From: Bacteroidales bacterium | Lineage (GTDB): Bacteria; Bacteroidota; Bacteroidia; Bacteroidales; UBA4417 | Reading direction: 5' to 3' | Length of the DNA: 64,000 nt | Assembly (NCBI GenBank): GCA_963665485.1 | Contig: OY762227.1 | Span: 688,426 to 752,425 of the forward strand | In this document: positions 48,202-61,840 of the stretch, one piece after another | How the letters are laid out: every line of letters begins with the position of its first letter | How positions within the stretch are numbered: position 1 is the stretch's first letter | Position numbers and translations under genes: made by a program | Notes under the pieces: model-generated | The model's database searches: none | Told to the model about the DNA's origin: nothing | What the model saw: only the letters and a program-made list of their open reading frames with translations

Positions 48202-49533
48202 GTGGAAAATAAAAAGAAAGCCTATATAGAGACCTACGGATGTCAGATGAATTTTTCGGATAGTGAGATTGTAGCATCTATACTTGAAACCCAGAATTAC
48301 GAATCAACAACTGACATAAAAGCTGCTGACCTGATTTTGCTGAATACCTGTTCGATACGCGACAACGCCGAGCAACGGGTGCGTAACCGCTTGAATGAAC
48401 TTCATGCTTTGAAACGTAAACATCCCGGCCTGGTTATTGGGTTGCTGGGTTGTATGGCTGAACGGCTGAAAGACAAGTTGCTTGAAGAAGAGCGACACAT
48501 CGACCTGATTGTTGGCCCCGACGGATACCGGCAGTTGCCTCAATTGCTTGAGCAGGTTGAAAGCGGACAAAAAGCAATTAACGTTCTACTTTCGGCAGAT
48601 GAAACCTATGCTGACATTAATCCTGTTCGTACAGGTGGAAGTGGTGTAACCGCATTTATCAGTATTATGCGTGGATGCGAAAATTTCTGTGCCTATTGTG
48701 TTGTGCCTTATACACGCGGAAAGGAACGCAGCCGCAATCCGCAAACAATTATTAAGGAAGCAAAGGAACTTTTTGAACAGGGATTTCGTGAGGTTACTCT
48801 GCTTGGACAAAATGTAAACTCTTACCATGGGGAAGAAAATGGGAAACCTATTGATTTTCCCGCGTTGCTGGAGCAAGTAGCTTCGATAAACCCTTTGCTT
48901 CGCGTTCGATTCGCCACCTCGCACCCAAAAGATATTTCGGACAATTTGCTTGAAGTTATTGCCGCAAACGAAAATATCTGCAAATCAATACATCTTCCGA
49001 TACAGTCGGGCAGCACAAAAATGCTGGGAATGATGAAACGCAGCTATACCCGCGACTGGTATATGGATCGGATTGCAGCAATCCGAAGGATTGTTCCCGG
49101 ATGTGCTATTACGACTGATATTATTGCCGGTTTCTGTTCCGAAACAGAGGAAGACCACCAGGAAACTATTTCGGCCATGCGCGAAGTGGGATATGATTAT
49201 GCTTATATGTTCAAGTATTCGGAGCGCCCTAATACCATTGCGGCCAAAAAATATCCCGACGATGTTCCCGAAGATGTGAAAAGTCGCCGCCTTGAAGAGA
49301 TAATTTCTTTACAACAGCAACTCTCACTGAAAAGTAATAAACTCGAAATCGGTAAAGAATATGAAGTATTAGCCGAAGGGGTATCGAAGCGCTCAGAACA
49401 GCAACTTTTTGGCCGGACAAGCCAGAACAAAGTGGTTGTTTTTCCCCGTGATTCTTATAATCCGGGCGATTACGTAAAAGTTAAAATTCTGTCGTGCACA
49501 GCTGCAACTTTAAAAGGTGAACTTGTAAAATAA
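48202..49533 (+). CDS. miaB: tRNA-2-methylthio-N6-dimethylallyladenosine synthase
   Basis: N-terminal UPF0004 Cys residues (YGCQMN...NTCSIR), a radical-SAM motif GCENFCAYCVVPYTRG and a C-terminal TRAM domain. Confidence 0.92.
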   Translation: MENKKKAYIETYGCQMNFSDSEIVASILETQNYESTTDIKAADLILLNTCSIRDNAEQRVRNRLNELHALKRKHPGLVIGLLGCMAERLKDKLLEEERHIDLIVGPDGYRQLPQLLEQVESGQKAINVLLSADETYADINPVRTGGSGVTAFISIMRGCENFCAYCVVPYTRGKERSRNPQTIIKEAKELFEQGFREVTLLGQNVNSYHGEENGKPIDFPALLEQVASINPLLRVRFATSHPKDISDNLLEVIAANENICKSIHLPIQSGSTKMLGMMKRSYTRDWYMDRIAAIRRIVPGCAITTDIIAGFCSETEEDHQETISAMREVGYDYAYMFKYSERPNTIAAKKYPDDVPEDVKSRRLEEIISLQQQLSLKSNKLEIGKEYEVLAEGVSKRSEQQLFGRTSQNKVVVFPRDSYNPGDYVKVKILSCTAATLKGELVK

Positions 49534-49591
49534 GTAAATTGCAGTGTAAACAAAGCACTATTTACATGTAAATATTTAAGTTAATTTATTA

Positions 49592-49599
49592 TATCTTTG
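49592..49599 (+). promoter_or_regulatory. -7 box (TATCTTTG) for the polysaccharide-export gene pair
   Basis: Matches TAnnTTTG, 44 nt upstream of the ATG at 49643. Confidence 0.45.
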
Positions 49600-49642
49600 C
49601 TGCATTGTGATCTGAATTTAATACTCTGATAAAATTATACTT

Positions 49643-50431
49643 ATGAATTCCAAGCTTGTTGAATTTAAGCTTCTCTTTTTATTGATCATCAGCCTGGCTA
49701 TGATTTCTTGCGTGCCACAGGCCAAAATGAAGTATCTTCAAACTAAAGAAGGTGACTCCATTGTGAGTGAATTTAAAAATATTAAACCGGATTACAAGCT
49801 TAAACCTGGTGATTATCTGTATATACGTGTTCTCACCCTCGACCAGAAAAGCAATGAGTTATTTGCATCCATGAACGGTTCCGGAGGAACAAACGGATAT
49901 ACGAATACTACCGATCAGAGTCTTTACCTTACCAGTTACCTTGTAAATGATTCAGGGTTCATCTCTTTCCCGCTATTGGGAAATATCCCAGCTGCCGGTC
50001 ATACCGTGAACGAAATGAAACAAAGTCTGAATAAGATGGTTTCTGAAATAATCCGTGAATCGAGTGTTGTTGTTAAACTCGTTCTTTTCGACATTTCAGT
50101 ACTCGGTGAAGTTAAAAACCCGGGTAAATTCTCAGTAAACAAAGATCATATTAACATTTTTGAGGCGCTTTCACTGGCCAACGACATCACCGCATTTGGC
50201 AATCGCACCAAAGTACAGATAATCCGCGCTGATCTGAACAAGAATAAAATTGTTACAATTGATCTGTTGAGTAAAGATATTCTGTCCTCCCCCTATTACT
50301 ACCTTCAACCAAATGATATAGTATATGTTGAGCCTATGAAAGAAAAGGCTTACGCATTCGAAACCTTCCCGTATGGCCTGGTGTATTCAACCATAGGATT
50401 AGTACTTGTTATCTTAACCTTCTTCAAATAA
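49643..50431 (+). CDS. Wza-like polysaccharide export protein (Poly_export + SLBB)
   Basis: Signal/lipobox-like ISC, then KLKPGDYLYIRV and VLGEVKNPGKF motifs. Its stop overlaps the start of the next gene. Confidence 0.8.
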   Translation: MNSKLVEFKLLFLLIISLAMISCVPQAKMKYLQTKEGDSIVSEFKNIKPDYKLKPGDYLYIRVLTLDQKSNELFASMNGSGGTNGYTNTTDQSLYLTSYLVNDSGFISFPLLGNIPAAGHTVNEMKQSLNKMVSEIIRESSVVVKLVLFDISVLGEVKNPGKFSVNKDHINIFEALSLANDITAFGNRTKVQIIRADLNKNKIVTIDLLSKDILSSPYYYLQPNDIVYVEPMKEKAYAFETFPYGLVYSTIGLVLVILTFFK

Positions 50432-52914
50432 TGGATTACAATTCCCCCAATTATACCGAAATGCAGCAGGAGCAGTCTGTTGACATCAAAGCCCTGTACT
50501 ACAAATTTCTGAGCTACTGGTATTTGTTTTTTATCACTATTGTTCTGGTTATGCTTATTGCATTTCTGTTCAATAAATACACAGAGCCGGTATATAAAGT
50601 TAAAACAACTGTTCTGATCACTGAAGAAAAAGGTGGGCTGAGTGACGCTCAATCGCTTTTGGGATTCGGCAACATCACCAATACTCAGAAACTACAAAAC
50701 CAGATTGGGGTTTTGAAATCACGTTCACTTGTTTCGCGTACCTTAAAATCTTTGAATTTTAATGTCTCCTGCTTTAAAGAAGACAATTTCATTACATCTG
50801 AAGTGTATAATGAATCGCCTTTCGAAGTAATTCTCGACACATCGCGCCTTCAGCCGGTAGGGAATGTGAAATTTTATGTAACCATACTTTCGGATAATGA
50901 ATACAGGCTTGAAGCGGATGGACAAGACCTGACGCTATACAATTTCAATGGTTTCCACGAAACTGATAAAAAAATCACCTCACTTAAATACGACAAAAAG
51001 CACACTTTCGGAGAACAATTATCCACAAAGGAGTTTGCCTTCCGGGTTGTAAAAACCGCAAAATACGATTCGAAAACGTCTCAGAACCAACGTTACTATT
51101 TTGTTTTCAACTCATTAAACGCGATGATATCCCAATTTTCGGGTTACGAAATTGAGCCCATAAACAAGGAAGCATCAATTGTTGAAATCGCTTTAAAAGG
51201 CAGCAATTCTCAAAAAGCCGTCGATTTCCTCAACCGGCTTTCGATGGAATATATCAGGCAAGGCCTCGAAAAGAAGAATCAGATTGCTATAAATACCATT
51301 ATTTTTATTGACGGACAATTAGGAGAAATCCGCGATTCGCTCAATACCAACGAAAATGTGCTGCAAAACTTCCGCACAAGCAATCAGATCATGAATCTTG
51401 ATGCCCAATCGCAGCAGGTGTATACCAGCATAACCGAACTTGAAAAAACCAAAGCGGAATTACTCGTTAAAGCAAAATACTACAACAACTTAAAGGAGTA
51501 TATCCAAAAGAATAAAGACGACATAAACGATGTTGTTGTTCCATCGGCAATGGGTATTGAAGATCCTGTAATGACGCAGATACTGACCCAGTTACAGCAA
51601 TTATATGCCGAAAAATCTGAACGCCTGCTCACTGCAAAGCCCAACAATCCTATGATTCAGGCTATGGATCAGAAAATCAGCAACACCAAAAGAGCGCTTA
51701 CCGAAAGTATTACCAATATTGTAAAAACATCGGATATCAGTATTAAGGATATTGATGGCAGGATTGACGCACTCTCCGGATTTTTCCGCAACCTGCCTGC
51801 CACGCAGCGCCAATTGCTGGGTATTGAGCGCAAATACAAACTCAATGATGCGATTTATACCTACCTGTTGCAGAAAAGGTCTGAAGCAGCCATTACAAAA
51901 GCAAGTAATACTCCTGATAACGAAATTGTAGATTTGGCAGATCCTGTTGTTCAGGAAAAGGTGTTTCCCAAAACGAGTCTCAATTATACCATTGCATTTA
52001 TACTTGGGCTGATTATCCCCTTGCTTTACATCCTGGGTAAGGACTATCTGAACGATAGGGTCGTTAATAAAAATGATATTGAAAAACACACGAATCTTCC
52101 GGTAATAGGTCATGTTCTGCATAACAAACATGAAAGCAATATCGTAGCTTACACTTCGCCTAAATCGGCCATTTCCGAATCATTCAGGGCCTTGCGAACT
52201 AACCTGCAATATATGACACATGGAAAAGATAAGTTTACAATACTTATCACAAGTACCAGTGTTAGCGAGGGTAAGACATTTACATCCATGAACCTTGCCT
52301 GTATATATGCGCAATTCGACCGTAAAACATTACTGATGGGATATGACTTGCGTAAACCAAAAATTTACCAGGACTTTGGACTGAAAAATACTGTTGGAAT
52401 CACTTCGTACCTTATCGGTAAAAATACACTCGAAGAAATCATTCAGAAATCACCTGTTCCCAACCTCGATATTATATCAGCAGGACCTGTTCCGCCAAAC
52501 CCGGCAGAACTTATTGCTTCACCTCTGAATGTAAAATTGCTGACTGAACTTAAGGAAATATACGATTACATAATTATTGACACACCACCGGTAGGCATTG
52601 TAACTGATGCATTCCTGCTGATTCCTTATACCGATGCCAACATTCTTTTGGTTCGCCAGAATCTGACCAATAAAAAAGTATTTGAATCAATCGCCGGTGA
52701 TTTTGAAAAACGGAACGTGCCCAACACTACTGTATTGGTTAATGATGTGAAGCCTGACAGGTCAGGTGCCGGTTATGGATACGGTTATGGATACGGTTAT
52801 GGTTATGGTTACGGATATGGTTATGGCCATGGTTATGGCTATGGTTATTACTCTGACGATGCCAAGAAAGAAGATGATGCATCTATGTTCAAGAAACTTT
52901 TCACCAAATCATAA
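50431..52914 (+). CDS. Wzc-like polysaccharide co-polymerase / BY-tyrosine autokinase
   Basis: Two TM helices flank a large Wzz/GNVR-type domain. The C-terminal part has the P-loop TSTSVSEGKT, Walker B IIIDTPP and a Gly-Tyr tail. Confidence 0.85.
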   Translation: MDYNSPNYTEMQQEQSVDIKALYYKFLSYWYLFFITIVLVMLIAFLFNKYTEPVYKVKTTVLITEEKGGLSDAQSLLGFGNITNTQKLQNQIGVLKSRSLVSRTLKSLNFNVSCFKEDNFITSEVYNESPFEVILDTSRLQPVGNVKFYVTILSDNEYRLEADGQDLTLYNFNGFHETDKKITSLKYDKKHTFGEQLSTKEFAFRVVKTAKYDSKTSQNQRYYFVFNSLNAMISQFSGYEIEPINKEASIVEIALKGSNSQKAVDFLNRLSMEYIRQGLEKKNQIAINTIIFIDGQLGEIRDSLNTNENVLQNFRTSNQIMNLDAQSQQVYTSITELEKTKAELLVKAKYYNNLKEYIQKNKDDINDVVVPSAMGIEDPVMTQILTQLQQLYAEKSERLLTAKPNNPMIQAMDQKISNTKRALTESITNIVKTSDISIKDIDGRIDALSGFFRNLPATQRQLLGIERKYKLNDAIYTYLLQKRSEAAITKASNTPDNEIVDLADPVVQEKVFPKTSLNYTIAFILGLIIPLLYILGKDYLNDRVVNKNDIEKHTNLPVIGHVLHNKHESNIVAYTSPKSAISESFRALRTNLQYMTHGKDKFTILITSTSVSEGKTFTSMNLACIYAQFDRKTLLMGYDLRKPKIYQDFGLKNTVGITSYLIGKNTLEEIIQKSPVPNLDIISAGPVPPNPAELIASPLNVKLLTELKEIYDYIIIDTPPVGIVTDAFLLIPYTDANILLVRQNLTNKKVFESIAGDFEKRNVPNTTVLVNDVKPDRSGAGYGYGYGYGYGYGYGYGYGHGYGYGYYSDDAKKEDDASMFKKLFTKS
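52771..52851 (+). repeat. Coding (GGN-TAY)n repeat giving the GY-rich tail of the Wzc-like kinase
   Basis: 27 codons encode nine GY, one GH, three GY and a final Y. The first 24 nt are an exact 12-nt duplication (ggttatggatac x2). Confidence 0.9.
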
Positions 52915-52970
52915 TCCTGAATTTGTGTTCGCATAAAACAGAGTAACATATTCAGTTTCAATTATACTAA

Positions 52971-52995
52971 GAGGGACGGCTATTAACCGTCCCTC
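52971..52995. terminator. Bidirectional terminator between convergent genes
   Basis: GAGGGACGG-ctattaa-CCGTCCCTC hairpin followed by a T-rich tail. Confidence 0.6.
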
Positions 52996-53017
52996 ATTAT
53001 TTTTGCATAGTTTCATT

Positions 53018-56000
53018 CTACTTGAACGCTTTCTCTAACAATCCGTCACCACTCAGTTTGAGCCTGTCGAAATAGCCAGGAACTTCTTTACCTATTAGTT
53101 TATCCACATAAATTTTTGCCAGGTATTGTCCGAGCATAAATCCTTGTCCGCGGAATCCAACAAACAGTCCAAGATCAGGATCAAGGATCATTCGGGGCTC
53201 AACATAATACCCTGCCCATACAGCCTGGAAACCTACCGATGAGAGTTGCGGCAACCAATCCACGAAAACTTCAGAAACTATTTCAAGAAATTCCTTCGAA
53301 TTGATTTTCAGATTTTTGTCCACTTCCATTGGCTCAACCAGCGGAGAAGCGCAGCCTATAATCTGGCCAGTTTCACCTAATTGCTGACCATAAACAGCAG
53401 AAAATCCTTTGTATTTACGCCGGTCAATAAGCATATCAAGCGGCTGACCGTTAATACCCATGTTGGGCAATCTTCGTGTAATAAATGCCTGGTGTTTTAC
53501 AGGATACAAGCCGGTTTCAATGCCAAGCTGCTTCGAAAACTTATCCGCTTCAGGGCCTAATGAATTTACAAAATGCGGGGTATGGAACTCAACATATTGC
53601 TTTTCGTGATCCCGGGCCAGAACGATATATTTTCCATTTTCTTTCCTGACATCAATAAGCTGGCAATCCTCATAAATCCTACCTCCTTTTTCAACCCCGA
53701 TACGCCGGATAAGGTCGATAACGCGTCCCGGAGTAGCCTGCCAGCAATCGCGTGTTATTTGGGCTGCCTGGTAGTGCTTACCAAGGTTTGGATTCAGGTT
53801 CGGTGAAATTTCCTTTTGATAATCTTTTGGATCGACCATATATGAATCCGACCAGGAACGGGAATCATCCAATGCCTTATAGGTAGCGTCATCATGAGCA
53901 AAAGTTACATAACGGGTCGAAAGGAAATTGATATCACGGATTTTCTGAAGGTCCTTGAAAATTTCCAGGTTGTGCCTTGCTATATCAGCAATTTCCGGCA
54001 AACTGAATGCCGGTCTGCCGCCCGCTATATTCCGCCACGAAGCGCCACGACCAAAGTTGATTAACGAGGGTTTCAGGCCAGCCTCGGACATATAACGGAA
54101 CAATGCACTTCCGCCAATTCCCCCGCCGGCAATCAGGGCCTGAACTTCCACGATGCGGGCTTTACTCTTGCTGTTGTTGATAATGATATTTTCGCGGACA
54201 TTTTTAGGAAATAATTCACCCATGGCAAGCTGGTTGCTCAATGGCCCGCGAGGAGTAGCATCGCCGACAACACTGATTCCTTTGTTACGCAAAACCTGCT
54301 TCAGTCTGCGAATGCAACGCTTTCCGCGACATGCTCCCATTCCAAGCCTGGTGGTATGCTTTATTTCGTCAACCGAAATAAACTTCCGGTCACCAATGGT
54401 AGTTACAATTTCACCCAGGGTTACATCATCGCAATGGCAAACATACATTTCATGCTCGCTGGCGTATTCGGTTGGCAGCATTACAACCGGCTCAGGATAA
54501 CTTTTCTTTATAATAAAACCGCGAACATCCAGTAATGCTTCCCCATGAATATCCAAAGATTTTACCCGGGCAATATTTGTCTTATTGGGTTTTTTCAGAA
54601 TTTTTTCAATGATACCGTTGCCAAGCTTTTTGCCTTGATTATCGACCAGATAAACTTCCTGTTTTTCGTCGGCAAAATACTCAATAGGCAGGAAAAGCCA
54701 GTCTTTTTTAGGCGCATAGCCAAAAATAGCCAGGCCCGGACATTGATAAACGCAATCCATACAACCAACACATTTGTCGAAATCCAATTGCGGAACAGTG
54801 CTGGTCGAAGTTTTGGTAATAGCTCCGTGCGGACAGGCAAACTCGCAGGGATTACAAGCAAATCCATACAAACAGTCAATCTGCACAAATGGCTTTTCGT
54901 TGAATCGTTCTGTTGTGGGTTTATAGGGTTCCTGGATTACGCGAAGCGGATGTTGCTGTGAATCAATATACTCCTTCGAAACGTTCAGGTATTTGTCATA
55001 ATCAACATTTTCACCCATATCCTGGAGTATCTCAAAAGCAACCTGGTTGCCTCGCAACACGGCACTTGTTCCTTCTCCAATTCGAATTGCATCACCGGCG
55101 CCGTAACAATTACGACCGAAAATTTCGTTTCCTTTTATAATCAGCTGATCATCAGCCACTAAACCAGTGCAAATATTAATTACATCAATGCCGTCAATTA
55201 TTTTCTCAGTTCCCGGAACAGCTTCAAAGTTTTTGCATTCGGCAACTACTGCACCAATAATCCCGGTGTTGTCTTCGTTAGGCAATGCTTTTAACAGGAT
55301 GTGCGATGTCATTACCGGAATCCCTAAACGGCGTACACGGTTTGCCTGAACCGGAAATCCGCCTTCATTAGCTTGTGCTTCAATGATAGCTTTCACTTCG
55401 GCACCTGCCTGCATCAATTGATATGAAGTTAGATATCCAATATTTCCGGCTCCTACTGTCAGAACTTTTTTCCCAAGTAGCGTCAGCTCATTGTTCATCA
55501 TTTTCTGAACAACGGCAGCGGTATAAACACCTGGCAAATCATCATTTTCGAATGTCGGCATAAACGGAACCGCGCCAGTAGCCACAACTAAGTATTCAGC
55601 ATCTACATAATAGATTTCGTCGGTTAATACATTCTTTACAGCAATACGTTTGCCTTCGAGCAAATCCCAAACGGTACTGTTGAGGAAAATGCCTTCGTGG
55701 CTGTCGCCTGCCAGTGTTTTTGCAATATCAAATCCACGCATTCCACCAAATTTCTTCTCTTTTTCAAAAAAGAAAAATTGATGAGTCTGCATTAAAAACT
55801 GACCTCCGATTTTATCATTGTTATCGATTACGATGGTATCGATTCCTTGTTTCAATAATTCTTCGCGGCATGCCAATCCGGCAGGACCGGCACCAATAAT
55901 GGCAACCGTGGTTTTGTACACATCCACAGGTTTTTCGGTATTAACTTCCCGCGCTTCCGGCGAATAATCGTGAGGAATTTCACTTACCTCTTTAACATTA

Positions 56001-56254
56001 TCCACCTTGGTGATGCATATACGACGGATTTGCCCGTCGACAAGCATTTCGCAGGCACCGCATTTGCCTATACCACATTCAAGACTGCGCTCCCGATTCG
56101 ACAAACTGTGGCTATGAACCGGAAACCCGGCCTGGTGCAATGCAGCAGCGATAGTGAAACCTTTTTCACCGGTAACTACAGTTCCTTCGTACTGAAAGTT
56201 AATCTTTTCGGTTACAGGTACTTCCAGAATAGGATGTTCAATAATTTTATTCAT
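53018..56254 (-). CDS. Multi-domain flavo-iron-sulfur oxidoreductase, fused in the order 2Fe-2S (Fer2_4) / NAD(FAD) pyridine-nucleotide reductase / 4Fe-4S / BFD-like 2Fe-2S / DAO-type FAD oxidase
   Basis: Domain signatures in order:
- 2Fe-2S: CGIGKCGACEM (aa 60-70)
- reductase: IIGAGPAG (119-126) and VGAGNIG (266-272)
- 4Fe-4S: C461-x5-C-x2-C-x3-CP plus CVGCMDCVYQCP (495-506)
- BFD-like: CHCDD...GMGACRGKRC (606-647)
- DAO-like C-terminal ~380 aa: IAGGGIGGS (708-716). Confidence 0.8.
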   Translation of the reverse strand: MNKIIEHPILEVPVTEKINFQYEGTVVTGEKGFTIAAALHQAGFPVHSHSLSNRERSLECGIGKCGACEMLVDGQIRRICITKVDNVKEVSEIPHDYSPEAREVNTEKPVDVYKTTVAIIGAGPAGLACREELLKQGIDTIVIDNNDKIGGQFLMQTHQFFFFEKEKKFGGMRGFDIAKTLAGDSHEGIFLNSTVWDLLEGKRIAVKNVLTDEIYYVDAEYLVVATGAVPFMPTFENDDLPGVYTAAVVQKMMNNELTLLGKKVLTVGAGNIGYLTSYQLMQAGAEVKAIIEAQANEGGFPVQANRVRRLGIPVMTSHILLKALPNEDNTGIIGAVVAECKNFEAVPGTEKIIDGIDVINICTGLVADDQLIIKGNEIFGRNCYGAGDAIRIGEGTSAVLRGNQVAFEILQDMGENVDYDKYLNVSKEYIDSQQHPLRVIQEPYKPTTERFNEKPFVQIDCLYGFACNPCEFACPHGAITKTSTSTVPQLDFDKCVGCMDCVYQCPGLAIFGYAPKKDWLFLPIEYFADEKQEVYLVDNQGKKLGNGIIEKILKKPNKTNIARVKSLDIHGEALLDVRGFIIKKSYPEPVVMLPTEYASEHEMYVCHCDDVTLGEIVTTIGDRKFISVDEIKHTTRLGMGACRGKRCIRRLKQVLRNKGISVVGDATPRGPLSNQLAMGELFPKNVRENIIINNSKSKARIVEVQALIAGGGIGGSALFRYMSEAGLKPSLINFGRGASWRNIAGGRPAFSLPEIADIARHNLEIFKDLQKIRDINFLSTRYVTFAHDDATYKALDDSRSWSDSYMVDPKDYQKEISPNLNPNLGKHYQAAQITRDCWQATPGRVIDLIRRIGVEKGGRIYEDCQLIDVRKENGKYIVLARDHEKQYVEFHTPHFVNSLGPEADKFSKQLGIETGLYPVKHQAFITRRLPNMGINGQPLDMLIDRRKYKGFSAVYGQQLGETGQIIGCASPLVEPMEVDKNLKINSKEFLEIVSEVFVDWLPQLSSVGFQAVWAGYYVEPRMILDPDLGLFVGFRGQGFMLGQYLAKIYVDKLIGKEVPGYFDRLKLSGDGLLEKAFK

Positions 56255-56464
56255 CTTAGTACAAAAAATATTATTTAATCAATCACGTGCCTAAGTGATT
56301 CACGGAGCAAAATTATATTTTTTTATCCAGCCGCTATCCACCATACAGGTAATTTAGAAAGAGTATTATTAACAGGAGTCAGGATAAAGAAATTAGGTTT
56401 TAATCATTGCAGAAAACAAAAAATTACGTGCGAAAAATGTTTATATGTCTGAGCTAATTATATG

Positions 56465-56472
56465 TATTTTTG
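56465..56472 (+). promoter_or_regulatory. -7 box (TATTTTTG) for the EFR1-like ferredoxin gene
   Basis: Matches TAnnTTTG, 32 nt upstream of the ATG at 56504. Confidence 0.4.
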
Positions 56473-56503
56473 ATTCGGACTGTGAGGTATAACAAGTTTA
56501 CTA

Positions 56504-57589
56504 ATGGAAAAACAGTACGACAACCTTCTGATGATTTATTATTCGGGCACCGGAAACTCGAAACGAGTATCGGAATGGATTGCACAGGAAGCGCAAGTCC
56601 TTGGATTAGAAACTCATATTTCGTCCTATCACCAGTTTAACCCGAACGATATTGCAGGTTTTAAAGGGAAGACGCTGATCGGATTTTTCTCAGCAACGCA
56701 TGGGTTTAATATGCCTCATTCCATGCTTAGATTTCTTTTCAGATTTAAGCTTTTAAAGGGATCGGATGTCTTTATTGGGAATACCAGGGCGGGAATGAAA
56801 CTTTCAAAATTGTTTTTACCTGGTTTGAGTGGAATTGCTATGTATTTCCCGGCTTTGGTCATGTTTCTGAAAGGTTATAAGATAAAAGCCATGTACCCGG
56901 TTGATCTGCCATCGAACTGGATTTCACTTCACCCGGGAATTCGCCGAAACGTAATCGATTCAATGGTTGAGCATTATGAGAAACTGACCAGAAGGTTTGC
57001 GGAAAGAGTTTTATGCGGAAAGCGTGTATTCCTGAAATCATTTGTTTTGCTTCCGCTTGATATTTTGGTTGCTCCCATAGCTTTAGGTTATTATTTTGTA
57101 GGTCGGTTTATTCTTGCAAAAACTTTTGTTGCCAATTACAACTGCAACAACTGCGGCTTATGCATGAATCAATGTCCAACCAAATCCATTATCCTTGAAC
57201 ACAACCGCCCTTACTGGAAATTCACCTGCGAAAGTTGTATGAAATGTATGAATTTCTGCCCCGAACGTGCCATAGAAACGGCTCATTCCATGGTGTTTAT
57301 ACTTCTCTTTCTGCTTATCGCAGTAGTAAATCCATACCTTTCAGCTAAAGTAACTGATCTGGTTGCTTTGTTATTTGGAGGTTCCAAACTGGCATTCGAG
57401 TCGTTATATCTTGTGGTGCAATGGTCTGTAGCACTTGCTATTTTCTATCTGGGGTATATACTGCTACATTACCTGATGCGTTTCCCAAGGATAAATAAGA
57501 TTATAACCTATACTACGCTTACGACATGGAAATTCTGGCGACGATATAAAATTCCAACGCATGTGTCTGTACACCCAAAGGGTGTCTGA
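56504..57589 (+). CDS. EFR1-like ferredoxin: flavodoxin-like N-domain, two 4Fe-4S motifs, multiple TM helices
   Basis: LMIYYSGTGNSKRV (flavodoxin-like), CNNCGLCMNQCP and CESCMKCMNFCP, with hydrophobic helices in the middle and at the C-terminus. Confidence 0.7.
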   Translation: MEKQYDNLLMIYYSGTGNSKRVSEWIAQEAQVLGLETHISSYHQFNPNDIAGFKGKTLIGFFSATHGFNMPHSMLRFLFRFKLLKGSDVFIGNTRAGMKLSKLFLPGLSGIAMYFPALVMFLKGYKIKAMYPVDLPSNWISLHPGIRRNVIDSMVEHYEKLTRRFAERVLCGKRVFLKSFVLLPLDILVAPIALGYYFVGRFILAKTFVANYNCNNCGLCMNQCPTKSIILEHNRPYWKFTCESCMKCMNFCPERAIETAHSMVFILLFLLIAVVNPYLSAKVTDLVALLFGGSKLAFESLYLVVQWSVALAIFYLGYILLHYLMRFPRINKIITYTTLTTWKFWRRYKIPTHVSVHPKGV

Positions 57590-57599
57590 CGCACAAAAA

Positions 57600-57631
57600 A
57601 ACCTGGCAGTTTCTGCAATCACTGCCAGGTT
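57600..57631 (-). terminator. Terminator (T-run on the minus strand) downstream of tonB; may also stop the + strand gene
   Basis: AACCTGGCAGT / ACTGCCAGGTT, an 11-bp stem preceded on the plus strand by A7. Confidence 0.55.
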
Positions 57632-57748
57632 AATAGAAAAGAGAGAAATATGGAAGAAGTGATAAGTTAATAGCTGGATGTAATGGTGTTACTCAATAAT
57701 AATTTTCAGCCTGAATACATCTGATCCAGGACTTAACCAACTTTGATC

Positions 57749-58537
57749 TCAACCCTGCAGCCTGAAACTAACGGGCATGGTGTAAAGCACACGCACATTT
57801 CTTCCGTTTTGCCTGCCAGGTTTCCACTGCGGCATCATTTTAACAACACGCAAAGCTTCTTCGTCGCAACCACCTCCTATTCCCCGAAGAATTTTAGCAT
57901 CAGTAATATTCCCTTTTGAATCCACAACAAACTGCAAATACACAGTGCCCTGGATGCCCAATTCCGATGCCTGTTGCGGATAGTGAATATTATCAGCAAG
58001 GAATCTATAGCGTTCGGTTTCACCACCAGGATATAAAGGCATTTCTTCGGCATTGATAAATATTTCTTGCTTTTCAATTGGATCAGTAATTATATCCGGT
58101 TGTTTATCGATTGTAGATTCCGGAGTAATCTCTATAGAAATGTTTTTTGATATTTTATTTATGTCTTCCATGGGCAAAAACCCACCATCATCAGGAACTT
58201 CTCCTATAACAACTTCAGGCACTTTAAATACATTTTGTTTTTGTGTTTCTGTAATTGGAGGGGGAGGAATGGGAATAACGGCATCTGGTGGCGGCGGGTC
58301 AGCAGTTAAAACTACAATACCCGGGTCATCCCAAACGTGTATTCTTCCTCCAGTGGCATTATAGCTTAATACAAACGGATACGCGAGCCCTGCAATCAAA
58401 ATTGTTACAGAAAGCAGCAATGCTTTCATCACTTGCTTGTTGTACATTTTTCGCAAAATATAAGCGCCGTACATTTTGTTCCTTTTTTCGAAGACGATTT
58501 CGTCCATTTGAGGGGATGTAGTTTCTTGCGTTTTCAT
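57749..58537 (-). CDS. tonB: Energy transducer TonB
   Basis: An N-terminal TM anchor, a Pro-rich spacer (PPPPDAVIPIPPPP) and a TonB C-terminal domain (YPQQASELGIQGTVYLQFVVD...). Confidence 0.85.
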   Translation of the reverse strand: MKTQETTSPQMDEIVFEKRNKMYGAYILRKMYNKQVMKALLLSVTILIAGLAYPFVLSYNATGGRIHVWDDPGIVVLTADPPPPDAVIPIPPPPITETQKQNVFKVPEVVIGEVPDDGGFLPMEDINKISKNISIEITPESTIDKQPDIITDPIEKQEIFINAEEMPLYPGGETERYRFLADNIHYPQQASELGIQGTVYLQFVVDSKGNITDAKILRGIGGGCDEEALRVVKMMPQWKPGRQNGRNVRVLYTMPVSFRLQG

Positions 58538-58799
58538 GATTTGGTGTTTTAAAAGTTGAATATTAAATTGGGAAACTGGTGAAAATAAGTTTCTGCACTC
58601 CCAACCCTTAGGTTGTCTGATATTGAATTTAAAAGAAAAGAAACGGGGTATTCATTACATTACCTTAAAAGATTGAAATTTACGCTTATACACATTAGAT
58701 GCGGGAAGCTTAAAATTTCCATAAATGGTAAAATTTATCATACAATTTATCGCACCGCTTGCTCTCGTTATATATCCTTGTCTTTATACCACAAAAACC

Positions 58800-58807
58800 T
58801 ATCTTTG
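58800..58807 (+). promoter_or_regulatory. -7 box (TATCTTTG) inside the 5' part of track ORF 58613-59437
   Basis: Matches TAnnTTTG, 18 nt upstream of an in-frame GTG at 58826. This argues for a shorter sigma-factor CDS. Confidence 0.4.
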
Positions 58808-58825
58808 TATAAATTACCCAAACAC

Positions 58826-59437
58826 GTGGCACTGAACTTTTTTCGTAAAGCCGATAAAAAAGAACTGCTTTCCCTATCGGATGAGCAGCTTGTAGCCCGT
58901 TACGCACAAACACACGACATTGAGATTATCGGTATTCTCTATGAGCGGTACACACACTTGTTATTCACCGTTTGTTATAAATACCTTGGCAACGATGCCG
59001 ATGCAGAAGATACCGTGATGCTGGTTTTTGAGAAGCTTTTCGCGTTATTGAAAAAATCTGATATACAAAATTTTAAAAGCTGGATTTACACTATCACAAA
59101 AAACGAATGCCTGATGCATCTCAGGCACAAGAAGTCGGGTGAACGCATAATTCAAGAAAATCTGAAAAAATTAGATAACGAGATTATGGAATCCCCGGCG
59201 CTAAATCATCTTTTAAGTGACAACGACGGAGAACATCGCATACGTTATCTCGAATCAGCTATTACCAGTCTGAGTTATGAGCAAAAAAAATGTATTGAGT
59301 TGTTTTACCTGAATGAAAAATCATACCGCGAAGTGGAACAGATCACAGGATATACTTACAACGAAGTTAAAAGTCATATACAAAACGGCAAACGAAATCT
59401 GAAGCAACTGTTGGAAAGGATGGATCGCTATGAATGA
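58826..59437 (+). CDS. ECF-type RNA polymerase sigma-70 factor
   Basis: Region 2 (DAEDTVMLVFEKL...WIYTITKNECLMHLR) and region 4 HTH (SYREVEQITGYTYNEVKSHIQNGKRNL). The track ORF has ~70 extra N-terminal residues with no sigma homology. The exact start is uncertain. Confidence 0.78.
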   Translation: MALNFFRKADKKELLSLSDEQLVARYAQTHDIEIIGILYERYTHLLFTVCYKYLGNDADAEDTVMLVFEKLFALLKKSDIQNFKSWIYTITKNECLMHLRHKKSGERIIQENLKKLDNEIMESPALNHLLSDNDGEHRIRYLESAITSLSYEQKKCIELFYLNEKSYREVEQITGYTYNEVKSHIQNGKRNLKQLLERMDRYE

Positions 59438-60626
59438 CAAGAATATTAAGTCGTCGGCTTTCTTTTTGACATCAGGTTGCCTTACAGAGGACGGGCTCAT
59501 GGTGTTTGTATCAGGCAGGCTGAAAGGTGACTCGCTTCTAAGAGCGCAGAAACACATTTCTGAATGTCCTTTATGCTCTGATGCCTCTGAAGGACTCCGC
59601 ATATGGTTAAATGAGAAAATCAAGGTAGGAAATATCAGCCCGGAACATCCTGATACCAATTACTCTGATTCATTTGAATTGCCCGGTAATCAAACCGTTT
59701 CTGAAGTAAATCCGGAGTCACTTCTCAAATCGCTTAATGAATTTCATATACGTACTGGCGTGATTAATGAGCGGATAAAGCAGCGCCTGAAAACCCACGC
59801 ATTGATTGAATCTGGTAAAATAAAACGGCTTTCGTACAAACCTTTTGTGTGGCTGGCAGCAGCTGCATCTATTATACTTTTCATTGGTGTGGGATATGTA
59901 TTATGGCTTCAAAATCAGCAGACTAATAAAATACAGGCTCAGAAACAACTACAAAGGGAAGCAGCTCTTATTGCCCAAATTCCTGAAACTTTGCCCTATC
60001 CTCCATCAAACAGCAAAGTTATACTTGACGTAAAATACAATAGTGAAAAGGGAACTCATATTCCGCCTGTATTAACTATAGTAAATGAAGATATCACGCA
60101 GGCTTCAGAAACGGCAAGGACAAGAAACAAAGCATTAAACACAGATGATAATGCTGAATATACCGAAACCAGGCATGGAGTGGAATCAGATGTTTACAAG
60201 GAAGAGTCCGGGATGTATAAAGGACAGAATTCAAAACGCGCGCTTACCACTAAAAATAGTGGTGGCGCGATGCAAAAAGCCGAAACCGACGATGAAACCA
60301 GCTCTGTTTTTATAAGTGTACAGCAAATGCCTTCGTTTCCCGGTGGTGATGCCGCGCGAAAAAAATACCTTTCCGGTAAACTCAAATATCCAGTCCAGGC
60401 TTCTGAAAATGGAATTCAGGGAGCAGTATTTGTCAGCTTCGTTGTGAAAACCGATGGCAGCCTGGCTAATATTAAAATCTTACATGGAATTGGCGGAGGA
60501 TGTGATGAAGAAGCCTTACGTGTGGTGAAACTTATGCCTCGTTGGAAACCAGGCCGCCAGAATGGCAAATCGGTAAGAACACTTATCAATATGCCGGTTT
60601 ACTTTAAATTGCAAGAGACATATTAA
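59430..60626 (+). CDS. Zinc-binding anti-sigma factor fused to a TonB C-terminal domain
   Basis: It overlaps the sigma gene by 8 nt. It has the ZAS motif H-x3-C-x2-C (HISECPLC), a single TM helix (FVWLAAAASIILFIGVGYVLWL) and a C-terminal ~95 aa that is about two-thirds identical by eye to the neighbouring TonB C-domain. Confidence 0.75.
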   Translation: MNDKNIKSSAFFLTSGCLTEDGLMVFVSGRLKGDSLLRAQKHISECPLCSDASEGLRIWLNEKIKVGNISPEHPDTNYSDSFELPGNQTVSEVNPESLLKSLNEFHIRTGVINERIKQRLKTHALIESGKIKRLSYKPFVWLAAAASIILFIGVGYVLWLQNQQTNKIQAQKQLQREAALIAQIPETLPYPPSNSKVILDVKYNSEKGTHIPPVLTIVNEDITQASETARTRNKALNTDDNAEYTETRHGVESDVYKEESGMYKGQNSKRALTTKNSGGAMQKAETDDETSSVFISVQQMPSFPGGDAARKKYLSGKLKYPVQASENGIQGAVFVSFVVKTDGSLANIKILHGIGGGCDEEALRVVKLMPRWKPGRQNGKSVRTLINMPVYFKLQETY

Positions 60627-60841
60627 TATATTGTATGTCTGCAAGTTAGTCTGCAACAACTGCTATCCGCATTTTATTGTGATGGAGATCAATACCTTTG
60701 ATTTTACGTTATTAACACCTTTTGTAATTAAAACCTGAAGGAAATTGATGGATTTTAAATCGCTGTTATTTTATTATGTACGTTTGATGTAATGTTAAAT
60801 CACGAAATCGTTTGATTTAATCCATTCAATATCTTTTACTT

Positions 60842-61840
60842 ATGAAAATACTTTTACACAAAACTTCCTTCCTGATGCTGATGTTTGCATCAATTTTAAC
60901 ATTTAGCGCCTCCGTAAAAGGCCAAACCAATCCTACGCCTTTCGATTTATCAACCGGATCGTATGAATTAACAGCCTGGGATTCACTAAGTCCGGCAGGA
61001 ACCTTTCCTCACAATATGGCATTTCATTATGTTGCGGCAAACCAGACTGCGCCATTTTATACTGACGGATCGTTCGACTTCAATTGTTCTTATAAAAAAT
61101 CGAAGCGGCCACGCATTAATGGTTTAATGAGCAAAGGAATAGGGATTGTAACTACAGGTAATTCACAATACGACGATTGTAACTCGGGGGCCGCCGACAG
61201 CCGGTTTATGGGAGCTATTCTTCTTTCGCTCAATGCCACTGATAGAACCAATATCAACGTTAGCTGGAAAAGTGAAACCGTAACACCCGGTGATGGTAGT
61301 CCAACCGAGCCCAGGGTTTGGAACCTGAGGCTACAATACCGGCTTGGGAACAGTGGACTTTTTACCGATGTTCCGGGTATGGCCGATTTTATTTCTTCCA
61401 TTTCAACAGGTGATTCCGTTCAATTCGGGCCTACAGAATTGCCTGGCGAATGTAATAATCAGCCTGTTGTACAATTACGCTGGATATATTTTGAAACCTC
61501 AGCCGGAGTCGTGGGTGGAAGCAGGCCTCAATTGCGTTTGGACGACATAGAAGTTACCAGTGTTCAAACGGTTGGTATCAATGAGACGCAGGTAAATGCA
61601 AACAAACTGCTTTCCGTATTTCCCAACCCGGCGCGCGCGCAGTTCACACTTTATAAAAATTCAAACAGCATGGGCACCATACAGGTAACCGACCAGGTTG
61701 GCAGGATGGTTATGCAGAAATCCTTTAGTCAGGCTTCGGCAACTTTCGATTGCTCTTCTCTTCCGAAAGGGATTTATTTTGTAAAAGTGACAGATAATTC
61801 CAATGGAATAAATAAAACCAGCAAGCTACTGATTCAATAA
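60842..61840 (+). CDS. Secreted protein of unknown function with a T9SS type-A C-terminal sorting domain
   Basis: A signal peptide, and a C-terminal ~80 aa LSVFPNPARAQFTLY...LPKGIYFVKVTD...KLLIQ typical of Por/T9SS CTDs. Confidence 0.8.
   Translation: MKILLHKTSFLMLMFASILTFSASVKGQTNPTPFDLSTGSYELTAWDSLSPAGTFPHNMAFHYVAANQTAPFYTDGSFDFNCSYKKSKRPRINGLMSKGIGIVTTGNSQYDDCNSGAADSRFMGAILLSLNATDRTNINVSWKSETVTPGDGSPTEPRVWNLRLQYRLGNSGLFTDVPGMADFISSISTGDSVQFGPTELPGECNNQPVVQLRWIYFETSAGVVGGSRPQLRLDDIEVTSVQTVGINETQVNANKLLSVFPNPARAQFTLYKNSNSMGTIQVTDQVGRMVMQKSFSQASATFDCSSLPKGIYFVKVTDNSNGINKTSKLLIQ

Follow-up and report, generated by a model that had tools for sequence, protein, structure and literature searches.

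A five-module iron-sulfur flavoprotein of Bacteroidales, a likely single-chain amino-acid dehydrogenase of the proline dehydrogenase type

Introduction

Can the subunits of an iron-sulfur flavoenzyme complex be carried on a single polypeptide, and if so, which substrate would such a protein oxidize and where would its electrons go? The question is raised by a gene in a 64,000-nucleotide stretch of a Bacteroidales genome (assembly GCA_963665485.1, contig OY762227.1, positions 688,426 to 752,425; hereafter the window). Its product, P0001, is a flavoenzyme of 1078 amino acids (aa). An earlier reading of the DNA letters (the original prediction) had described it as a single-chain fusion of modules that are distributed over separate subunits in HcnABC, in heterotetrameric sarcosine oxidase (SoxABGD), and in archaeal proline dehydrogenase (PDH). 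The protein was proposed to be a self-contained amine or amino-acid dehydrogenase, wired to the membrane through the product of a divergently transcribed gene that resembles EFR1 ferredoxins.

In the heteromeric family of opine, D-hydroxyproline, and L-proline dehydrogenases, the substrate varies with the beta subunit, with opines, D-hydroxyproline, L-proline, and hydrogen cyanide synthesis all represented (PMC4575208). Two cluster signatures were defined for this family, a gamma-type motif Cys-X4-Cys-X2-Cys-X11-12-Cys and a BFD motif Cys-X-Cys-X15-20-Cys-X4-Cys, and an Arg-X-Trp motif of the beta subunit was proposed to bind a flavin mononucleotide (FMN) at the subunit interface (PMC4575208). 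A new class of flavin-based electron-bifurcating enzyme, FngABC, was reported in October 2026; it combines DAO and BFD modules, a reductase-fold unit for flavin adenine dinucleotide (FAD) and nicotinamide adenine dinucleotide (NAD), and a [4Fe-4S] unit (PMC13689815). With glycerol 3-phosphate (G3P), dihydroxyacetone phosphate (DHAP), and ferredoxin (Fd), its reaction is G3P + 2 Fd(red) + 2 NAD+ <-> DHAP + 2 NADH + 2 Fd(ox); the enzyme is inactive with any two substrates alone, and G3P alone gives no reduction of NAD+ (PMC13689815).

We report herein that the fused gene is genuine, is widespread in Bacteroidales, and is collinear with split operons found in other genomes. We think it likely that its product is a cytoplasmic, single-polypeptide iron-sulfur flavoprotein amino-acid dehydrogenase of the alpha-gamma-delta-beta (pdhA-F-X-B) type, whose gene was formed when the genes of a four- or five-gene operon were joined in their original order. 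Comparative evidence points to proline/pyrroline-5-carboxylate (P5C) as the substrate pair, and the EFR1-like membrane ferredoxin is a lineage-specific neighbor, not a dedicated partner.

Results and Discussion

One uninterrupted gene encodes five redox modules

The gene is an uninterrupted open reading frame (ORF) without an internal stop (Table 1). Annotation with Pfam profiles recovered all five modules that the original prediction had listed, and every motif quoted there was found in the translation. From the N-terminus, the modules are Fer2_4, a two-Rossmann FAD/NAD reductase, a 2x[4Fe-4S] ferredoxin-like segment, a BFD-like [2Fe-2S] domain, and a DAO-fold FAD dehydrogenase. The product is probably cytoplasmic, because its sequence shows no clear sign of a signal peptide or a hydrophobic segment. 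A model of the whole protein made with AlphaFold2 (AF2) has a mean predicted local distance difference test (pLDDT) score of 87.6 and a predicted template-modeling (pTM) score of 0.78, and short loops are the only places at the domain junctions where its confidence drops.

Across 24 family members and 13-14 relatives at about 30% identity, none of the 16 cluster cysteines varies. The motif of the Fer2_4 domain, C60-x4-C65-x2-C68-x11-C80, fits the gamma type, with its cysteines unchanged in the 24 family members and in 13 distant relatives, and the module is the counterpart of the gamma subunit of opine dehydrogenase (OpnDH) and D-hydroxyproline dehydrogenase (D-HypDH), of HcnA, and of the N-terminus of archaeal PDH alpha. 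In the reductase domain, an FAD motif, GAGPAG (residues 121-126), goes with D144, and an invariant QTHQ (156-159) follows about 30 residues past this GxGxxG. A second dinucleotide motif, GAGNIG (268-273), goes with a nearly invariant E292, which suggests NAD(H) at the second site. Two solved structures match this domain by sequence, 1y56_A (E 3.8e-12) and SoxA 2gag_A (E 1.8e-9). The ferredoxin-like domain carries C461-x5-C467-x2-C470-x3-C474-P and C495-x2-C498-x2-C501-x3-C505-P. The BFD motif, C606-x-C608-x33-C642-x4-C647, also has invariant cysteines, and its spacer of 33 exceeds the published 15-20; the domain lies above the Pfam Fer2_BFD cut-off of 26 bits.

The DAO domain, presumed to be the substrate-oxidizing module, is the most divergent part of the protein. 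It contains GGGIGGS at residue 710, a KHQ with the invariant H921, and an invariant C968. Its only significant sequence match in the Protein Data Bank (PDB) is 1y56_B (E 1.9e-8), to which Foldseek aligned it with a template-modeling score (target) of 0.78. At E <= 0.01 in NCBIfam, no match to soxB was obtained, and the domain is very divergent from SoxB- and ThiO-type sequences.

Split relatives are collinear with the fused protein

Matches below about 35% identity to the window protein are split forms, and their contigs were inspected. In L084, five consecutive genes encode a Fer2_4 protein (101 aa), a reductase (P0218, 364 aa, to which the reductase domain of the fused protein is 42% identical), a ferredoxin-like protein (159 aa), an SO_alpha_A3/BFD protein (93 aa), and a DAO protein (381 aa). 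L080 has four genes, with Fer2_4 already fused to the reductase. Its alpha (490 aa), ferredoxin-like (168 aa), BFD (102 aa), and DAO (381 aa) proteins align, in that order, to residues 3-428, 443-565, 600-658, and 714-1057; thus the Bacteroidales protein corresponds to an entire operon whose genes were joined end to end without a change of order. The L080 ferredoxin-like subunit extends over the first part of a beta-rich domain that follows the ferredoxin module, while the DAO subunit of L080 and the DAO domain are 22% identical. Four genes are likewise present in L085, with the reductase fused to the ferredoxin module, and two in L056, where a 713-aa Fer2_4-reductase-ferredoxin-BFD protein is followed by an overlapping DAO gene. 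The small modules therefore occur on their own, Fer2_4 as a gene of 100-101 aa in L084 and L085, the ferredoxin-like module as one of 159-168 aa in L084 and L080, and the BFD module as an SO_alpha_A3/Fer2_BFD subunit of 93-103 aa in L080, L084, and L085. The original prediction held that these modules are normally separate subunits, and the two-, four-, and five-gene forms, all collinear, bear this out.

The first four modules, a unit of about 680 residues referred to here as the electron module, seem to be a widely reused redox cassette. A distant relative of this unit is fused to an N-terminal flavodoxin domain in P0148 (867 aa). In P0165 (1179 aa), the electron module carries an inserted GltD/NfnB-like Fer4_20 domain and a second reductase domain. 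A sediment metagenome contig (L081:3603-10526) has three consecutive genes, for a NuoE-NuoF fusion (793 aa), a 1310-aa megafusion (P0140) of Fer2, polyferredoxin, FlpD/MvhD, and Fer2_4-reductase-ferredoxin-BFD, and a DAO protein; this locus ties the electron module to the NADH/ferredoxin core of Bfu-type bifurcating enzymes.

The fused gene is an order-level trait

Two even draws of genomes were searched, 201 from the order of the window genome and 401 from the phylum. A full-length, stop-free gene was found in 93 of the 201 (57-81% identity), mostly as a single copy, versus only two of the 401; it is therefore an order-level trait. The window genome itself is a single contig of 5.47 Mb, 99% complete, with one copy of the gene. 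In a search of 5.8 billion proteins, more than 2,400 matches were obtained; the best 120, which were the ones listed, are 1074-1109 aa long, are 75-93% identical, and have the same Pfam set. They come from Bacteroidales, Lentimicrobium, and metagenome-assembled genomes of Bacteroidota, and where a name is given it is "FAD-dependent oxidoreductase". Clustering at 50% leaves essentially two clusters, the second of which (P0123; 64% identity, 1,435 members) includes proteins of Parabacteroides distasonis. The single-chain form of this known kind of enzyme is new, with public database entries existing under a generic name only.

One further protein with all five modules was encountered in a eukaryote. 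It is a 1190-aa protein (P0141, KAG9389563.1, annotated 'sulfurtransferase'; L058:7001-10573) of the anaerobic protist Carpediemonas membranifera, with 31% identity, on a contig that also has WD40, LRR, and zf-C2HC5 genes; it may represent an independent fusion or a transfer into the eukaryote.

Likeness to archaeal proline dehydrogenase and to other known systems

The confident PDB sequence matches of the fused protein are confined to the alpha (1y56_A) and beta (1y56_B) chains of Pyrococcus horikoshii L-proline dehydrogenase and the alpha subunit of sarcosine oxidase. Foldseek placed SoxA, 1y56_B, and 1y56_A at the top, followed by glycine oxidases and dimethylglycine dehydrogenase. Among known systems, the PDH complexes of Thermococcales (Thermococcus profundus pdh and P. 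horikoshii 1Y56) have the module set and order of the split operons, and their chains are the best or near-best solved matches by both sequence and fold. The arrangement of four-subunit PDH, with 2x[4Fe-4S] and A3/BFD between alpha and beta in that order, recurs in L080 and L084, and a link to P5C metabolism is common to both systems. The archaeal gene order is reportedly pdhA-F-X-B, and the alpha subunit is said to have NADH dehydrogenase activity, in work ascribed to Kawakami et al. of 2004/2005. The differences are that the archaeal enzymes consist of two to five polypeptides and the window enzyme of one, that identity to the 1Y56 chains is only about 19-22%, that the window host is a mesophilic bacterium, and that the Arg-X-Trp (FMN) motif of the PDH-type beta subunit is not kept.

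OdhABC, LhpBEF, and HcnABC resemble the window protein in having a gamma-type [2Fe-2S] motif, a reductase-fold alpha, a BFD-type cluster, a DAO-type beta, and two ADP-binding motifs; the fused protein likewise has one GxGxxG in its alpha module (GAGPAG) and another in its DAO module (GGGIGGS). However, these enzymes have no 2x[4Fe-4S] module and consist of three separate subunits, their reported BFD spacer is 15-20 residues, versus 33, and they hold an interface FMN with the beta Arg-X-Trp that is missing here. In addition, they belong to aerobic or facultative Proteobacteria and are linked to dyes or to the respiratory chain.

As for SoxABGD, the Foldseek list for the complete AF2 model is headed by SoxA (1vrq_A and 2gag_A, E about 1e-25), and the small subunit of the split relatives carries the SO_alpha_A3 Pfam domain. 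Nonetheless, the score against the NCBIfam soxA model TIGR01372 is 72 bits (residues 115-330 of the reductase domain), far below the cut-off of 1164 bits, and no folate-binding/aminomethyltransferase (GCV_T-type) C-terminal half was found in a Pfam scan of the protein. Sarcosine oxidase has no iron-sulfur clusters and uses O2 as the acceptor.

FngABC shares with the window protein a DAO-fold FAD dehydrogenase, a BFD [2Fe-2S], a reductase-fold FAD/NAD(H) domain, and a [4Fe-4S] unit as a ferredoxin port, and both would start from a mid-potential donor that is unable to reduce NAD+ alone. It is, however, not a homologous assembly. FngA has DAO then BFD on one subunit, whereas BFD precedes DAO in the window protein; FngC (DUF1667) is absent from the window genome, as is DUF1667 from the Pfam scan of the protein; and FngABC has neither the extra Fer2_4 cluster nor the di-cluster ferredoxin domain. 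Its substrate is a polyol phosphate, while that predicted for the window enzyme belongs to the amine class. The defining features of sarcosine oxidase, HcnABC, and Fng enzymes set the window protein apart from all three; it appears to work like, and to descend from, the alpha-gamma-delta-beta complexes of the PDH type.

Comparative evidence points to proline and P5C

The original prediction had left the substrate unknown. Gene adjacency and phyletic pattern narrow the choice toward proline/P5C. The five-gene operon of L084 is directly followed by a P5C dehydrogenase (P5CDH) gene (792 bits against TIGR01237; cut-off 660 bits). In G529, the gene immediately upstream of the fused gene, in the same orientation, encodes a P5CDH (TIGR01236 above its cut-off; Pfam Aldedh); in G054 and G585, two genomes of one family, a P5CDH gene lies within 4.5-5.6 kb. 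In G555 and G551, a short Pro_dh gene abuts the flavoenzyme gene, and the same is seen in L046. Adjacency to P5CDH or Pro_dh occurs in five of the 93 carriers, against about 0.3 expected by chance for each.

The phyletic counts were made over the 201-genome sample. When Pro_dh is present, P5CDH is found in 58 of 65 carriers and 48 of 66 non-carriers. When Pro_dh is missing, the numbers are 18 of 28 carriers versus 4 of 42 non-carriers (odds ratio 17, p 2e-6, phylogeny ignored). HypD, which is a source of P5C from hydroxyproline, is itself more frequent in carriers (40/93 vs 21/108); when it is missing together with Pro_dh, P5CDH is still found in 9 of 18 carriers versus 3 of 41 non-carriers. 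The window genome encodes, far from the window, HypD (1180 bits), two P5CDH paralogues, and one Pro_dh of about 390 aa, a set that, by profile matches, would be complete for anaerobic hydroxyproline/proline catabolism. The enzyme as a replacement for Pro_dh was considered and rejected, since no anticorrelation was seen in the 201 genomes: Pro_dh occurs in 65 of 93 carriers and 66 of 108 non-carriers (odds ratio 1.5, p 0.24).

Several genes were observed near the fused gene. The commonest neighbors are a YceD-rpmF-plsX-fabH housekeeping block (6 of 31 loci) and a nitroreductase. A nitroreductase-family gene of 177-191 aa lies within a few kb in L032, L046, L068, L069, and L078 (cluster c4), which belong to several unrelated families, and a further small gene of this family, annotated separately, is found in L082 (3362-3937). 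In L032 and L083, the fused gene is immediately followed by a gene for an Fe/Mn superoxide dismutase, and L045 has such a gene nearby. In G038, a genome with P5CDH and HypD and without Pro_dh, a class I/II aminotransferase gene (438 aa; L035:10825-12141, minus strand) precedes the fused gene in the same orientation, with a gap of 20 bp, and the two look like an operon.

A number of points weigh against a PDH-type enzyme that acts on proline. Most carriers (65/93) already have a PutA-type Pro_dh, with which a second enzyme for proline would in part overlap. With identities of only about 22%, the DAO domain stands far from PDH beta and from the split-operon DAO subunits; it has also lost the match to the soxB and ThiO models that the split subunits show, so its specificity may have shifted. 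In the fused family of Bacteroidales, the beta Arg-X-Trp is replaced by Q-[A/S]-x-W (residues 1010-1013); in a motif alignment, split and distant relatives keep VRQW or RRVW at this site. The second dinucleotide site could, by analogy with the alpha4beta4 enzyme of P. horikoshii, bind ATP and not NAD(H). Moreover, no conserved operon partner was found in 31 loci, the phyletic counts were tallied by hand from result tables and rechecked once, with phylogeny ignored in the statistics, and literature searches found no paper or experimental study on the fused family.

The same architecture might serve another substrate, such as sarcosine, glycine, a D-amino acid, hydroxyproline, pipecolate, an opine or N-alkyl amino acid, a hydroxy acid, or a compound like glycerol 3-phosphate. 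That Pro_dh is already present in most carriers would fit such a case, as would the very divergent DAO domain, whose best NCBIfam matches are weak and mixed (GlpA 26 bits, ThiO 22 bits); over the whole protein, GlpA models score 26-61 bits, with cut-offs of 425-553 bits. Substrates have shifted with the beta subunit in the heteromeric family (PMC4575208), and the two-gene form in L056 adjoins a short-chain dehydrogenase and a D-2-hydroxyacid dehydrogenase, with no proline genes. Against this, P5CDH tracks the flavoenzyme gene where both Pro_dh and HypD are missing, P5CDH or Pro_dh adjacency is well above that expected by chance, both sequence and fold put an L-proline dehydrogenase closest among characterized proteins, and the surroundings of the gene show no transporter or pathway genes for other substrates that recur. 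We regard a different substrate as less probable than proline/P5C.

A possible route for the electrons, and bifurcation

If the protein is a proline dehydrogenase of this type, the BFD-type [2Fe-2S] and the other clusters would carry electrons to the FAD of the reductase domain, whose second dinucleotide site appears to have stayed a canonical one of the NAD(H) type. The ferredoxin-like 2x[4Fe-4S] domain, at the surface, would be a likely third port for soluble ferredoxin or flavodoxin. Other loci of the genome encode stand-alone P5C dehydrogenases, which could convert the P5C formed to glutamate.

The potential of proline oxidation is about -120 mV. Direct transfer from proline to NAD+ is strongly uphill, so a soluble NAD-linked enzyme would need coupling. 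One refinement of the proline dehydrogenase reading, rather than an alternative to it, is that the protein is a single-chain flavin-based bifurcating/confurcating oxidoreductase, in which proline and reduced ferredoxin together would drive reduction of NAD+ or, in reverse, 2 NADH would reduce P5C and ferredoxin. The bifurcating site would be the reductase FAD, with a high-potential branch made up of the DAO FAD and the BFD [2Fe-2S] and a low-potential branch formed by the 2x[4Fe-4S] domain. The cofactor logic is that of FngABC, the GAGNIG...E292 motif of NAD type is nearly invariant, and the electron module is found fused to flavodoxin in P0148 and, as part of the P0140 megafusion with Fer2, polyferredoxin, and FlpD/MvhD, in a gene preceded by one for a NuoE-NuoF fusion and followed by a DAO gene. 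In addition, the host, an anaerobe from wastewater or digester habitats, has pyruvate:ferredoxin oxidoreductase (PFOR, 1961 bits). Together with several NuoF/HydB-like genes, PFOR gives the host an anaerobic, ferredoxin-based background, which also speaks for the proline dehydrogenase reading in general; for RnfC, nothing above the cut-off was found in its genome. The FngABC-like cofactor logic, the fusions of the electron module, and the PFOR-containing host are the grounds on which we rate bifurcation as a serious, if unproven, idea. The idea rests on analogy only, and some observations speak against it. FngC is absent, the order of DAO and BFD is the reverse of that in FngA, and archaeal PDH complexes were reported only as dye-linked. 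The FngABC paper, moreover, makes no mention of proline, Bacteroid*, fusions, or HcnB, and names sarcosine oxidase only in an InterPro description (PMC13689815). Bifurcation or confurcation is thus a tentative proposal that we hold to be rather unlikely, and it is slightly more doubtful still that this would be the first single-polypeptide enzyme of the FngABC type, with proline/P5C, NAD(H), and ferredoxin or flavodoxin coupled on the same polypeptide.

The divergent EFR1 gene is a lineage-specific neighbor

The divergently transcribed flavodoxin-like/2x[4Fe-4S] gene of the original prediction is present 249 bp away. Its product, P0002, is a member of the EFR1 family, with a score above the 75-bit cut-off of NF038196 and a match that covers positions 2-232 of this 242-position model. 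It has a flavodoxin-like start (YYSGTGN), two CxxCxxCxxxCP motifs, and, in addition to the family pattern, hydrophobic segments between the modules and at the C-terminus. A scan of 52500-58000 with Rfam gave nothing at E <= 0.1.

According to the original prediction, the amine dehydrogenase passes its electrons to the membrane through this protein. The close divergent pairing, its recurrence in many loci of the same genus, the flavodoxin-like and 2x[4Fe-4S] domains, the fusion of a distant electron-module relative to flavodoxin (P0148), and the fact that P0002 is the only family-level EFR1 in the genome would all fit such wiring. By tblastn over 30 orthologous loci, however, EFR1 was found beside the flavoenzyme gene only in loci of the same genus, and not in all of these, and where it was found, the unrelated Wza/Wzc, MiaB-like, and TonB genes were syntenic too. 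None of 30 loci from other genera and families has EFR1 nearby. Among congeners, all with an intact flavoenzyme gene, G036, G017, and G012 have the EFR1 orthologue on a different contig, a search of G019 (96% complete) gave none, and G004 has a pseudogene remnant of it, in which about 60 (61) of the last residues persist in a 79-aa ORF (L006:4906-5145) between the flavoenzyme gene and a TonB-like gene. The original prediction had named conservation of the pair across genomes as a check and a lack of co-conservation as evidence against the partnership; the pair is not co-conserved, and the partner hypothesis therefore falls by that measure, while the single-chain fusion stands. With adjacency confined to part of one genus and the gene unlinked, degraded, or undetected in five congeners, EFR1 was rejected as a dedicated partner, and membrane wiring through it is very improbable. 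A divergent 358-aa iron-sulfur neighbor in L032 was considered as a distant EFR1 and rejected as RDH/QueG-like.

The flanks of the window gene pair (48202-52914 and 57749-61840) are unrelated to redox metabolism. They contain genes for a MiaB-like radical-SAM methylthiotransferase, Wza/Wzc-type polysaccharide export, and a protein sorted by the type IX secretion system (T9SS), and two TonB-C-domain genes around an extracytoplasmic function (ECF)-type sigma factor.

Finally, an artefactual ORF, created by a frameshift or by an assembly join of neighboring subunit genes, which the original prediction had raised against itself, can safely be dismissed, as 93 independent full-length copies occur across many families, the 120 best database matches are 1074-1109 aa long, the window genome is a single 5.47-Mb contig, and the AF2 model is confident over the junctions, short loops excepted.

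Table 1. Positions of the flavoenzyme gene, its domains, and neighboring or related genes (window coordinates unless a contig is given)
Feature	Position	Strand	Basis
Iron-sulfur flavoenzyme, whole gene (P0001)	53018..56254	-	ORF and translation, orthologues, AF2 model
Fer2_4 domain, residues 16-86	55997..56209	-	Pfam PF13510, 39 bits
Two-Rossmann pyridine-nucleotide-disulfide-reductase-fold domain, residues ~112-412	55019..55921	-	Pfam Pyr_redox_2 from residue 116, 71 bits
Ferredoxin-like 2x[4Fe-4S] domain, residues 455-510	54725..54892	-	Pfam Fer4_7, Fer4_9, Fer4; dicluster match 466-510
Beta-rich domain after the ferredoxin module, residues 511-598	54461..54724	-	AF2: strands 510-594, pLDDT 89-97
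BFD-like [2Fe-2S] domain, residues 604-656	54287..54445	-	Pfam PF04324 Fer2_BFD, 37 bits
DAO-fold FAD dehydrogenase domain, residues 705-1078	53021..54142	-	Pfam DAO 707-1050, 108 bits
Divergent intergenic region, 249 bp	56255..56503	.	Sequence read
EFR1-family flavodoxin-like/2x[4Fe-4S] protein (P0002), 361 aa	56504..57589	+	NCBIfam NF038196, 119 bits
HypD, two P5C dehydrogenases, Pro_dh	G000:C1:4693714-4696065, 4790191-4791774, 5393758-5395344, 4429497-4430393		Profile matches

Conclusions

This large gene, with strong conservation (57-97% identity), is present in about half of the Bacteroidales sampled. The carriers stem from communities of wastewater and digesters, and the related cluster includes P. 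distasonis of the human gut. With two flavin domains and four iron-sulfur clusters in one chain, the protein would be a convenient model for electron routing and possibly for bifurcation. If it is a proline/P5C enzyme, it would fill a gap in the amino-acid catabolism of anaerobes without a PutA-type enzyme and would connect, through HypD, to the anaerobic use of hydroxyproline. Should bifurcation hold true as well, anaerobic Bacteroidales, including P. distasonis, could oxidize proline without a respiratory chain, or could make reduced ferredoxin with hydroxyproline-derived P5C as an electron sink.

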